Origin: Promethearchaeota archaeon
GTDB taxonomy: Archaea; Asgardarchaeota; Lokiarchaeia; Sigyniarchaeales; SOKP01
Length of the DNA: 64,000 bases
Assembly: GCA_019058365.1 (NCBI GenBank)
Contig: JAHPZE010000014.1
Location: 46,040 to 110,039 of the forward strand
Direction of reading: 5' to 3'
A model generated the notes under the pieces. That model was not told the DNA's origin. It made no database searches and worked only from the letters and a program-made list of their open reading frames with translations. Below, piece by piece: positions 54,192 to 56,934 of the stretch. The translations under genes were made by a program, and so were the position numbers. The first letter of the stretch is position 1. Every line of letters starts with the position of its first letter.

Positions 54192-54566
54192 TTATATCTT
54201 TAAAATTTTGGTGTTCAATCCATTTCTTGCTTGTAAAAGTAGGTTAAGATTAGTGTTTATTTTTCCAATTTTATTTACTTTATTTGGCATTTCAATTTCT
54301 TCAATAGCTATTATCAACTCATCGGTTTTAGGGTTGTAAATAATATCACCTTTTTCTGCACTAATTATCGATTTAGGATTAGTACCTTTGTAAATTTCAA
54401 CCCCAGGTAGTGTCCAATAACTTTTTGAACCAAAACTATATCTACCTCTAAGTACAAAAGGTAATTTATCAATTATAGCATCTGCGGTAAGAGGAGAAAG
54501 ATGACGGATAATATCACCTTCTAAAGTGCCAATTCCGAACAAAATAACCTTTATGGATACACTCAT
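54192..54566 (-). CDS. Cyclophilin-like fold protein
   Basis: SPLTADAIIDKLP, KGDIIYNP, VNKIGKI. Confidence 0.65.
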   Translation of the reverse strand: MSVSIKVILFGIGTLEGDIIRHLSPLTADAIIDKLPFVLRGRYSFGSKSYWTLPGVEIYKGTNPKSIISAEKGDIIYNPKTDELIIAIEEIEMPNKVNKIGKINTNLNLLLQARNGLNTKILKI

Positions 54567-54678
54567 ATTTTATAAATAATATAATTTCTGATATTTATAT
54601 TATTTTAATTTAAAATTAAAAATAATTAAATTTTTGTCGTAAATATCGATAAATTTATTATTTTCTTTAATAACAATA

Positions 54679-54686
54679 TTTAAATA
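54679..54686 (+). promoter_or_regulatory. Candidate TATA box (TTTAAATA) for the putative ncRNA
   Basis: Located -31..-24 relative to G54710, the first base of the terminal helix. Confidence 0.5.
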
Positions 54687-54709
54687 GTCAAATTATCATA
54701 TATTCAATT

Positions 54710-55200
54710 GGACAATAGGTAAATTTTGCATTGGATTTGGAAACAAACCTACGGTTTTTACACCGAATTAAACGTTCCCTTAAAATGAATTAGTATTTTA
54801 TATCAGACAAATTTTTTTTTATATGAACTCTAAGAATCTAAAATCAGAGTAATATCATTCAAGAATTTTAATCATTTATTCCTTTTTTAACGTTGGGAAA
54901 AGATATAAAGCGCTTCTAGATTAGCAAGTTGAAACAGGAATTTATTTTTCACACAGATCTATACTCAAATTTATTCGATATTGATACACGAGACTATTTA
55001 GCATTAATGCTTATATTCGTGTCGAATTAAGAATTTTAATTATTTGGTACCAGAGACATTGAAACTTGAGTACTCTTATATCGAAATTAGTATAAATTTG
55101 TAAATAGGAGCTTTGATTACGTAATTGCTTCAATGGATAATAATTTTGTCAAACTCCCTTGAATCAATTATACTTTGATTAATCGGAGCACCTATTGTCC
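54710..55200 (+). ncRNA. Candidate ~490-nt structured non-coding RNA of unknown class
   Basis: Terminal helix GGACAATAGGT/ACCTATTGTCC, several nested internal helices, upstream TATA box, downstream T7 tract, no ORF in the track. Confidence 0.55.
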
Positions 55201-56036
55201 TCTTTTTTTGAGCTTTTCAGATCATTTATATTATCAATATCATAGAATTGATGTTGACTTTTTATTTTAAAAGCATAAATTTTTTTTCCATTATTAATCA
55301 TATAATTCATTGATTCCCATACTGTTTTATATGGTATTTTTCCTTTCAAATTTAACATCTCATTAATGAAATCATAATTAAATAAAGTAACAGGAATAAT
55401 TTGATTTATAACATTCTTTAAAAGTAAATTTTTAATTTTTCCTTGAGTTATTTTTTTTAAAATAGTTTTTGAACCGATATTCTCAATTTCAGCATTTGAA
55501 ATTATTCTATTTATACTATATAGTTCTTTTATTGGTTTTAATCCTATAATTCTATAAAAGACAAAAGGATGCATTTGAATCAAATCAAAATTGTTAGATA
55601 TAATAGATAAAACTTCTTTTAGTAAGTTATAATTAAAAATTGTATCACCAGGAATTACTAAGAAGTAATTTGTCGATGTGAAGAAATCTTTATTTTTGAT
55701 TATCGATAAAAGTGAATATAGTGGTCCAAATTTATACTGATTTTCAGTATCTATGATTATTACTTTATCTTGTATGGTTTGATTTTTTTTTTCCAATGAT
55801 AAAATGAACTCGCGGATGGAATCTCCTAAATAACCAATAACGACTCCAATTTGTTTTATTTTTAAATTAATTAGATTATTAATACTATGATGGAGAATTG
55901 AAATATTTTCTAATCTTTCTATTTTTATTAATGATTTAGGGGTATTTTTTGTAATTGTTTTAAGTCGCTTTCCCTCTCCAGCGCATAAAATGACTCCAGA
56001 TATTTTTTCTTTAAAATTATTCTCTTGTAGTAACAA
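55179..56036 (-). CDS. Nucleotidyltransferase (NTP_transferase family); start uncertain
   Basis: VILCAGEGKRLKTITKNTPKSLI, GDTIF, FYDID; TTG 56036 minimises overlap with map. Confidence 0.75.
   Translation of the reverse strand: MLLQENNFKEKISGVILCAGEGKRLKTITKNTPKSLIKIERLENISILHHSINNLINLKIKQIGVVIGYLGDSIREFILSLEKKNQTIQDKVIIIDTENQYKFGPLYSLLSIIKNKDFFTSTNYFLVIPGDTIFNYNLLKEVLSIISNNFDLIQMHPFVFYRIIGLKPIKELYSINRIISNAEIENIGSKTILKKITQGKIKNLLLKNVINQIIPVTLFNYDFINEMLNLKGKIPYKTVWESMNYMINNGKKIYAFKIKSQHQFYDIDNINDLKSSKKEDNRCSD
55201..55209 (+). terminator. Oligo-T archaeal terminator candidate
   Basis: TCTTTTTTT immediately after the terminal helix. Confidence 0.45.
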
Positions 56037-56934
56037 TTCGTTTCCCTTTTTCATCCAGAATAATTGTATGTTCTTCTTGTGCAACTGGTTTTTTAAGAAC
56101 TTCAATTAAAATAGGATAGTTACCTATGATTTTTTTTCCTAGGAAAAATTCAAGAATTCGTTGAATTTTACTTTTTGGGATAAGATTATTCTTTTCGATC
56201 CATCTTGGGCTAAAAGGAAGTCGTCCAAAATTATTTTCGATTTTATTCATATATCCTAAATGTTCATAAGAAATATTTTTTTTTACTCTCTTTAAAAACC
56301 GAAATATATAAGCATGATCCCCATTATCAACTCTCCCTGCTCCAGAAGTTGCGAAAGGTTCACAAGCATATGCATCTCCCTGTTTAAGTATTTGATTATG
56401 TACCATATCTTTATAGTTTGGAATGAAAGGACCTGCATGTAAATCATATTGCTTTAATTCATGACCTCCTAAATTTGTTATAGGTTTTAGACCTCGATTT
56501 TTAATCTTTTGCTCGATAACTTCACCAATTTCATACAGTTTAATTCCAGGATTGAACAATTCAATTGCAGCTTCAAGAGCTTCTTTTGCAGCTTCAACAT
56601 AATTCTGAAGCTTTGGATCTTCATCAATATTTATTGTAAATGCAGAATCTGCTATAAAACCATTATAATGTGCTCCAACATCAATTTTTAATAACCCTTT
56701 TTCTGGAACGATTGTTTGATCATCTATTGGAGGACTATAATGAGCAGCAATTTCATTTAAAGACATATTGATTGGAAATGACAGTTCACATTCATTTTTA
56801 ATTATCTCAGCTTCACATCTATTAGCAATTTTTAAAAAAGATTCTCCTGGTTTAACTAATTTCTTCGCTAGTTTTTTCGCTGCTATAGCTGCATTTCCTG
56901 CTTTAATATAATCTTGAATATAATTACTACTCAT
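56017..56934 (-). CDS. map: Type II methionine aminopeptidase
   Basis: AAHYSP, KIDVGAHYNGFIADSA, NLGGH, CEPFAT, AQEEHT. Confidence 0.95.
   Translation of the reverse strand: MSSNYIQDYIKAGNAAIAAKKLAKKLVKPGESFLKIANRCEAEIIKNECELSFPINMSLNEIAAHYSPPIDDQTIVPEKGLLKIDVGAHYNGFIADSAFTINIDEDPKLQNYVEAAKEALEAAIELFNPGIKLYEIGEVIEQKIKNRGLKPITNLGGHELKQYDLHAGPFIPNYKDMVHNQILKQGDAYACEPFATSGAGRVDNGDHAYIFRFLKRVKKNISYEHLGYMNKIENNFGRLPFSPRWIEKNNLIPKSKIQRILEFFLGKKIIGNYPILIEVLKKPVAQEEHTIILDEKGKRIVTTRE

Follow-up and report, generated by a model that had tools for sequence, protein, structure and literature searches.

Results

An interval free of genes between two minus-strand neighbours

What is encoded between the cyclophilin-like and NTP_transferase genes of this archaeal genome, where 612 nt (54567-55178) hold no ORF of at least 50 aa in the ORF list? 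The gap lies in the window, by which we mean the whole 64-kb stretch of DNA that was analysed (contig C33:46040-110039, from a genome of 4.74 Mb with ~28% GC). An earlier sequence-only reading had called this the largest gene-free gap of the window, which is plausible because the other large gaps contain ORFs of 87-133 aa; it had also proposed that the gap encodes a novel ncRNA of ~490 nt. The latter proposal is supported by an element that is single-copy and syntenic, has covarying ends and matches no Rfam family. We consider this element to be, with high probability, an independently transcribed plus-strand ncRNA gene with a predicted product of ~490-500 nt (~54710 to 55203-09), the features of which are collected in Table 1.

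Both the promoter and the terminator that had been proposed are seen at the locus. The TATA box TTTAAATA ends 23 nt ahead of the terminal helix in the window copy and the predicted transcription start is G54710. The locus has what is generally expected of an archaeal RNA gene: a TATA box ~25 nt ahead of the start, termination at oligo-T and no conserved ORF. ARAGORN reported no tRNA in the 64-kb window.

The gene order VTT, cyclophilin-like, element, NTP_transferase, MetAP is kept in all relatives examined. As had been noted, the 3' end of the element overlaps the final 22 nt of the convergent ORF (55179-55200), over the 3' strand of the terminal helix, P1. In the genera g1 and g14 this ORF crosses the terminator and ends within the P1 3' strand, and the RNA gene therefore dictates its last residues. 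The tail of the window's NTP_transferase ORF, KKEDNRCSD, is encoded by the terminator and P1 3' strand of the RNA (window 55179-55209); the g14 ORF also terminates at the TAG within CAATAG, and that of g17 stops ~70 nt earlier. This protein tail therefore seems incidental to the RNA gene.

Table 1. Features of the element and its neighbours in window coordinates; subscripted H names denote helices of the 3' part.
Feature	Position	Strand	Evidence and occurrence
Cyclophilin-like gene, divergent neighbour	54192..54566	-	Pfam match; conserved synteny
TATA box TTTAAATA, A-rich stretch before it	54679..54686	+	All genera; 22-24 nt before first paired base
Predicted 5' end and P1 5' strand (GGACAAUAGGU)	54710..54720	+	Minimum-energy fold; covariation with 3' strand
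UGCAUUGG box	54727..54734	+	Almost invariant across family; no conserved partner
Hairpin CGGU-N6-ACCG	54752..54765	+	Arms of g1; g14 has CAACAAC/GUUGUUG at same place
Internal U9 run	54811..54819	+	Family: U6-12 run, median +95
Helix AUUCCU-U-UUUUAAC / GUUGAAA-C-AGGAAU	54878..54941 (54878-91 / 54928-41)	+	Window's own clade
Domain with long-range closing helix (54966-81 / 55078-100)	54966..55100	+	Cluster consensus folds; partly conserved
GAGACA box, usually GAUAC-NN-GAGACA	55053..55058	+	In 85/89 RNAs
3' hairpin domain	55103..55189	+	H_b 55110-18 / 55181-89, two U.G pairs
H_a, internal strand able to pair with 55191-95	55104-08	+	
H_c of 3' domain	55121-27 / 55165-71		
H_d of 3' domain	55129-33 / 55159-63		
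H_e of 3' domain	55135-37 / 55155-57		
NTP_transferase gene, convergent neighbour	55179..56105	-	Pfam; last 7 codons and stop on P1 3' strand
P1 3' strand (ACCUAUUGUCC)	55190..55200	+	Sequence; minimum-energy fold; covariation
T7 tract, likely terminator	55203..55209	+	T7-13 tract after P1 in all genera

Covariation of the terminal helix

The sequence-only reading had described an 11-bp terminal helix, and this is present: GGACAATAGGT (54710-20) is the perfect complement of ACCTATTGTCC (55190-200), the helix runs from the predicted transcription start to the oligo-T tract, and it is part of the minimum-energy fold of the window element. Comparison of syntenic homologues, the check that had been suggested, showed that this helix covaries. 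The comparison covered 41 distinct strand combinations. Position 4 is C-G in 31, U.G in 7 and U-A in 3; position 10 is G-C in 20, U-A in 13, A-U in 3 and G.U or U.G in 4, the Watson-Crick types occurring in different genera; and position 11 is U-A in 7, U.G in 7 and A-U in 12. When partners were shuffled, 0 of 10000 trials reached the observed P1 pairing (positions 10-13). Overall, the 10-15 nt at each end of the RNA pair with each other. Within the genus P1 shifts register yet stays paired, as in the combination of GAAAAGGACAAU with AUUGUCCUUUUC, and further register-shifted pairs are GGAGGAUAAUAGG with CCUAUUGUCCUCU and GGAUGGAUAAUAGG with CCUAUUGUCCAUC. Judged from these homologues, the terminal helix P1 is proven by covariation.

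Distribution in one Lokiarchaeial family

The element is single-copy in its genome, and by BLAST it occurs once per genome in 47 of the 53 species of the genus, with both ends conserved and the middle variable. A covariance model built from the 3' 97 nt gave one full-length match per genome in g1 (47/52), g14 (32/42), g16 (5/8) and g23 (1/1), and no match in 19 sampled genomes of three other families of the order. Homologues missed by the model were recovered at the syntenic site in g12, g13 and g15 and by a 5' pattern in g17; these copies share their ends with the others and have a different 3' domain. The element is present in eight genera of one Lokiarchaeial family. The 5' pattern, GGAYAATAG-N2-16-GCATTGG, matches 75 of 134 family genomes, and its reversed control matches 2 genomes; two matches in two other families were set aside as chance, both lying within coding DNA. 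In a genome of another family the cyclophilin-like gene has a different neighbour and no such element beside it. Dispersal as a MITE, the outcome that was to be looked for, was not seen: there is one copy, and all relatives have the same flanking genes.

Some copies depart from the usual architecture. Within the genus, L075 (genome G019) and L032/L084/L150/L151 (G041, G050, G022 and G052) have lost or replaced the 5' domain, that is the UGCAUUGG box, first hairpin and U-run, and have kept P1, the central module and the 3' domain; these RNAs are 350-390 nt long. The g17 homologue L279 (G115) is 362 nt long with a GC-rich core, and has a simple 11-bp 3' hairpin instead of the 97-nt 3' domain; structural studies may be best done on this copy.

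Searches for known families, partners and targets

The RNA matches no family catalogued in Rfam 15. No family reached its gathering score in the 64-kb window, the region gave three chance-level matches only (all with E of at least 1) at E values up to 10, and ten diverse family members gave nothing consistent. RNase P and SRP, signatures of which had not been found by eye, are included in this result. The model of archaeal RNase P RNA (RF00373; gathering score 84 bits) matched nothing in the window, nor anything in the region when E values up to 10 were admitted, and the genome's true RNase P RNA is at C7:170547-170868 (132.7 bits). Archaeal SRP RNA (RF01857), looked for as a match spanning helix 8 and the Alu domain, had none here and a full-length match of 75.3 bits elsewhere in the genome (C54:27346-27667, locus L011). 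As this score is below the RF01857 gathering score of 96.5 bits, standard annotation would miss the SRP RNA.

A Ro/Y-RNA particle was likewise rejected, as the TROVE domain (PF05731) was not found in the genome, which is scored 100% complete, while the controls responded. For a 7SK-like particle, in which a La-module protein would bind the U-tail, the La motif (PF05383) was not found in the genome either, in a search where the control responded in no genome. Exact complements of GCAUUGG, GGACAAUAG, GAGACA and AUCGGAGC are absent from the 16S, 23S, RNase P and SRP RNAs, and a role as antisense guide to these stable RNAs was rejected on this ground. A resemblance to the 5' boxes of U3 and the ACAGAGA/AGC motifs of U6 was dropped as it gained no Rfam score. 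A pattern scan of metagenomes for transcript-sized contigs gave 2 real matches in 80 loci, both on long genomic contigs, the rest being mostly chance matches.

Constrained boxes and a drifting interior

How much of the RNA between its paired ends is structured? The folding z-score, one of the checks suggested at the outset, was modest for the single sequence (-2.67 on the plus and -2.41 on the minus strand); a 22-sequence alignment fold, set against column shuffles, gave z of ~-11 on the plus and -11.7 on the minus strand. When clades from two genera were folded separately, their consensus structures shared one layout, consisting of P1, a hairpin near +45-65 with clade-specific arms, a U-run hairpin, a UCCUG..GUGC / GCAC..CAGGA module, the GAUAC-NN-GAGACA box and the 3' domain. 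Most relatives have this module as UCCUG-UA-GUGC / GCAC-UUUGGAG-CAGGA; in the window's own clade a plain helix (54878..54941) replaces it. The blocks conserved across the family are 54710-18, 54727-34 (TGCATTGG), 54813-18 and 55053-58 (GAGACA), followed in the 3' part by 55103-18, 55159-63, 55180-89 and 55192-200.

The internal helices of the sequence-only reading fared less well than its ends. CGGT/ACCG (54752-65) is conserved, although without covariation, and the long-range helix 54966-81 / 55078-100 is partly supported by an equivalent, CGAUUU/AAAUCG, that persists in other clades and contains one compensated pair. The pairing of CATTGGA with TTCAATG fails: the sequence is TTCATTG in most homologues, and each of the two sites is a conserved CAUUGG box. 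No support was seen for the TTTG-GAAA-CAAA loop, which does not survive in the closest relatives; TTCCC/GGGAA, ACTCT/AGAGT and the pseudoknot TTTATATC/GATATAAA are broken in relatives 84-90% identical; and the local CTCC..AATCAA/TTGATT..GGAG hairpin is specific to the window's clade. The impression of a densely folded RNA with many internal helices was overstated, because most of these helices are not conserved and the RNA has 28% GC and internal T-runs. On the conservation seen among homologues, constraint is confined to the ends, the 3' hairpin domain and a few boxes, and the middle drifts.

For the 3' domain, the two U.G pairs of H_b are retained in 74/76 and 66/76 sequences. Within the genus alone this domain showed no covariation above shuffles, because it is too conserved there. 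Across four genera there were 59 double-change cells compared with 32 +/- 4 in shuffles, and 85.8% of cells were paired compared with 83.0% in shuffles, with 0 of 300 shuffles reaching either measure. The sequences share ancestry and had been aligned by fitting to the model, so we take this cross-genus covariation as moderate support for the predicted domain.

The internal U-run and a possible short product

At 28% GC the RNA matches its genome background, and it contains four T-runs (T5, T9, T6 and T5). In this it differs from the genome's 16S, 23S, RNase P and SRP RNAs, in which GC is 42-51% and T-runs are nearly absent from the interior. In 81 of 89 RNAs, drawn from seven genera, a run of U6-12 lies at a median of +95; its flanking arms depend on the clade, and in 66 of those 81 the context is A-U(6-12)-R. 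Stems of at least 5 bp flank the run in 79%, compared with 52% when flanks are shuffled. An Sm/LSm-bound RNA would be expected to carry such an A-U(n)-R tract unpaired between stems.

The T9 run could terminate many transcripts. If the U-run at +95 were the working terminator, the main product would be a ~105-nt RNA holding the 5' strand, the UGCAUUGG box and the first hairpin, and the 490-nt form would arise by read-through, at a low level or under regulation. This would suit the prevalence of the run (81/89) and the fact that T-runs are avoided by this genome's stable RNAs and depleted on coding sense strands. However, the covariation of P1 requires both ends in one molecule; the 17 T-runs of at least seven inside genes of the window suggest that read-through is common; and P1 persists in three copies from which the whole 5' domain is missing or in which it has been replaced. 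We regard a main product of ~105 nt as rather unlikely, but the proposal is compatible with the full-length plus-strand RNA, and a ~105-nt isoform is a serious possibility.

In the full-length RNA, the P1 3' strand can alternatively pair with the internal strand AAUAGGAGC (55104-12), extending the 3' hairpin. The internal strand changes together with the 3' strand in g16 and g17, and one g1 species compensates at the internal strand and not in P1; the competing position is mismatched in g14, and in 24/76 overall. P1 is the minimum-energy form, with the alternative pairing 2-5 kcal/mol worse, and two conformers of the RNA are possible according to these folding models.

Minus-strand and DNA-level alternatives

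Since both neighbouring genes are on the minus strand, the element could instead belong to a transcript that reads through from NTP_transferase to the cyclophilin-like gene, forming a folded spacer or UTR within it. The minus strand gives the alignment fold z of -11.7 cited above and has, like a coding sense strand, few T-runs of at least seven (0.18 per RNA, compared with 1.17 on the plus strand). Against this, the plus-strand call of the sequence-only reading is backed by G.U statistics, promoter and terminator. The non-Watson-Crick cells of P1 are of G.U type in 18 cases and of A.C type in 4, and the U.G pairs of P1 and the 3' domain, those of H_b included, would all be mismatches (A.C) on the minus strand; the spacing between TATA box and P1 is fixed in every genus; and the T-tract after P1 persists in g17, though it is non-coding there with the convergent ORF stopping ~70 nt short. 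A functional minus strand is in our view improbable.

A DNA-level element acting without any RNA, either a replication origin or a set of protein-binding inverted repeats, would account for a single-copy, syntenic and AT-rich sequence in which an ACAATAG-like motif occurs three times in two orientations. It would not be expected to show deviations between the arms that are biased to G.U, nor a helix that shifts register while pairing persists; in addition, orc1/cdc6 is absent from the element's contig, all six Cdc6_C matches being on other contigs. We consider this very unlikely. Finally, the inverted terminal repeats and short ORFs could recall a MITE, a small-protein gene or a divergent RNase P or SRP RNA, but these are refuted by the single copy with fixed synteny, by stops or frameshifts in the 33 aa (+) and 40 aa (-) ORFs in relatives 81-90% identical, and by both RNAs being encoded elsewhere in the genome.

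Discussion

A plus-strand ncRNA gene thus best accounts for the element, and we judge the gene and its best explanation, taken as a whole, to be probable on balance. In this RNA the paired ends would serve to protect the molecule and define its termini, and the fixed single-stranded boxes and U-runs would be putative binding sites, most likely for proteins, with U-binding Sm-like proteins as one candidate binder. From these putative sites we infer that the RNA may act in trans as a particle scaffold. In most genera the internal strand might take the place of the 5' end on the 3' strand, and the RNA could then adopt two conformers. A trans-acting, protein-bound scaffold RNA is our best guess for its function, and a tentative one. 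There is also a slim chance that the RNA is the core of an Asgard-specific RNP built on Sm-like proteins, snRNA-like or 7SK-like. In such a particle the two A-U(6-12)-R tracts between stems would act with the fixed GAUAC-NN-GAGACA box, and the RNA would switch between two forms, one with its ends paired and one with the 3' hairpin.

The RNA has counterparts of several kinds. Like OLE, ROOL, GOLLD and raiA, the large orphan structured RNAs of bacteria, the Loki RNA measures several hundred nt, forms a transcription unit of its own and is conserved within a single lineage. Unlike them it is archaeal, with far lower GC and far fewer covarying helices; only its ends and 3' domain are constrained, and it has no match in Rfam. 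As with RNase P (RF00373) and SRP (RF01857) RNAs, its two ends pair and its gene, like that of a stable RNA, combines an archaeal promoter with an oligo-T terminator, whereas the RNase P and SRP RNAs of its own genome have 42-47% GC and no internal T-runs. The 7SK, Y and 6S-type scaffold RNAs have paired ends with a U-tail, a variable interior and short invariant boxes. The Loki RNA resembles them in all these respects and in the possible alternative pairing of the 3' strand; it differs in having no Rfam match, in a genome where TROVE/Ro was not found, and in its length, which exceeds that of Y or 6S RNA 3-5 times.

The Loki RNA also holds a caution for those who search for RNA genes: being as AT-rich as its genome and containing T-runs, it would escape any screen that relies on GC content or on fold energy. 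No known organisms are more closely related to eukaryotes than the Asgard archaea, and to our knowledge the non-coding RNAs of these archaea have hardly been studied. An RNA of ~500 nt, present in one copy at one locus across a family, is a concrete candidate for a new ribonucleoprotein; if the snRNA-like or 7SK-like reading were true, it would place such a particle in the closest prokaryotic relatives of eukaryotes.
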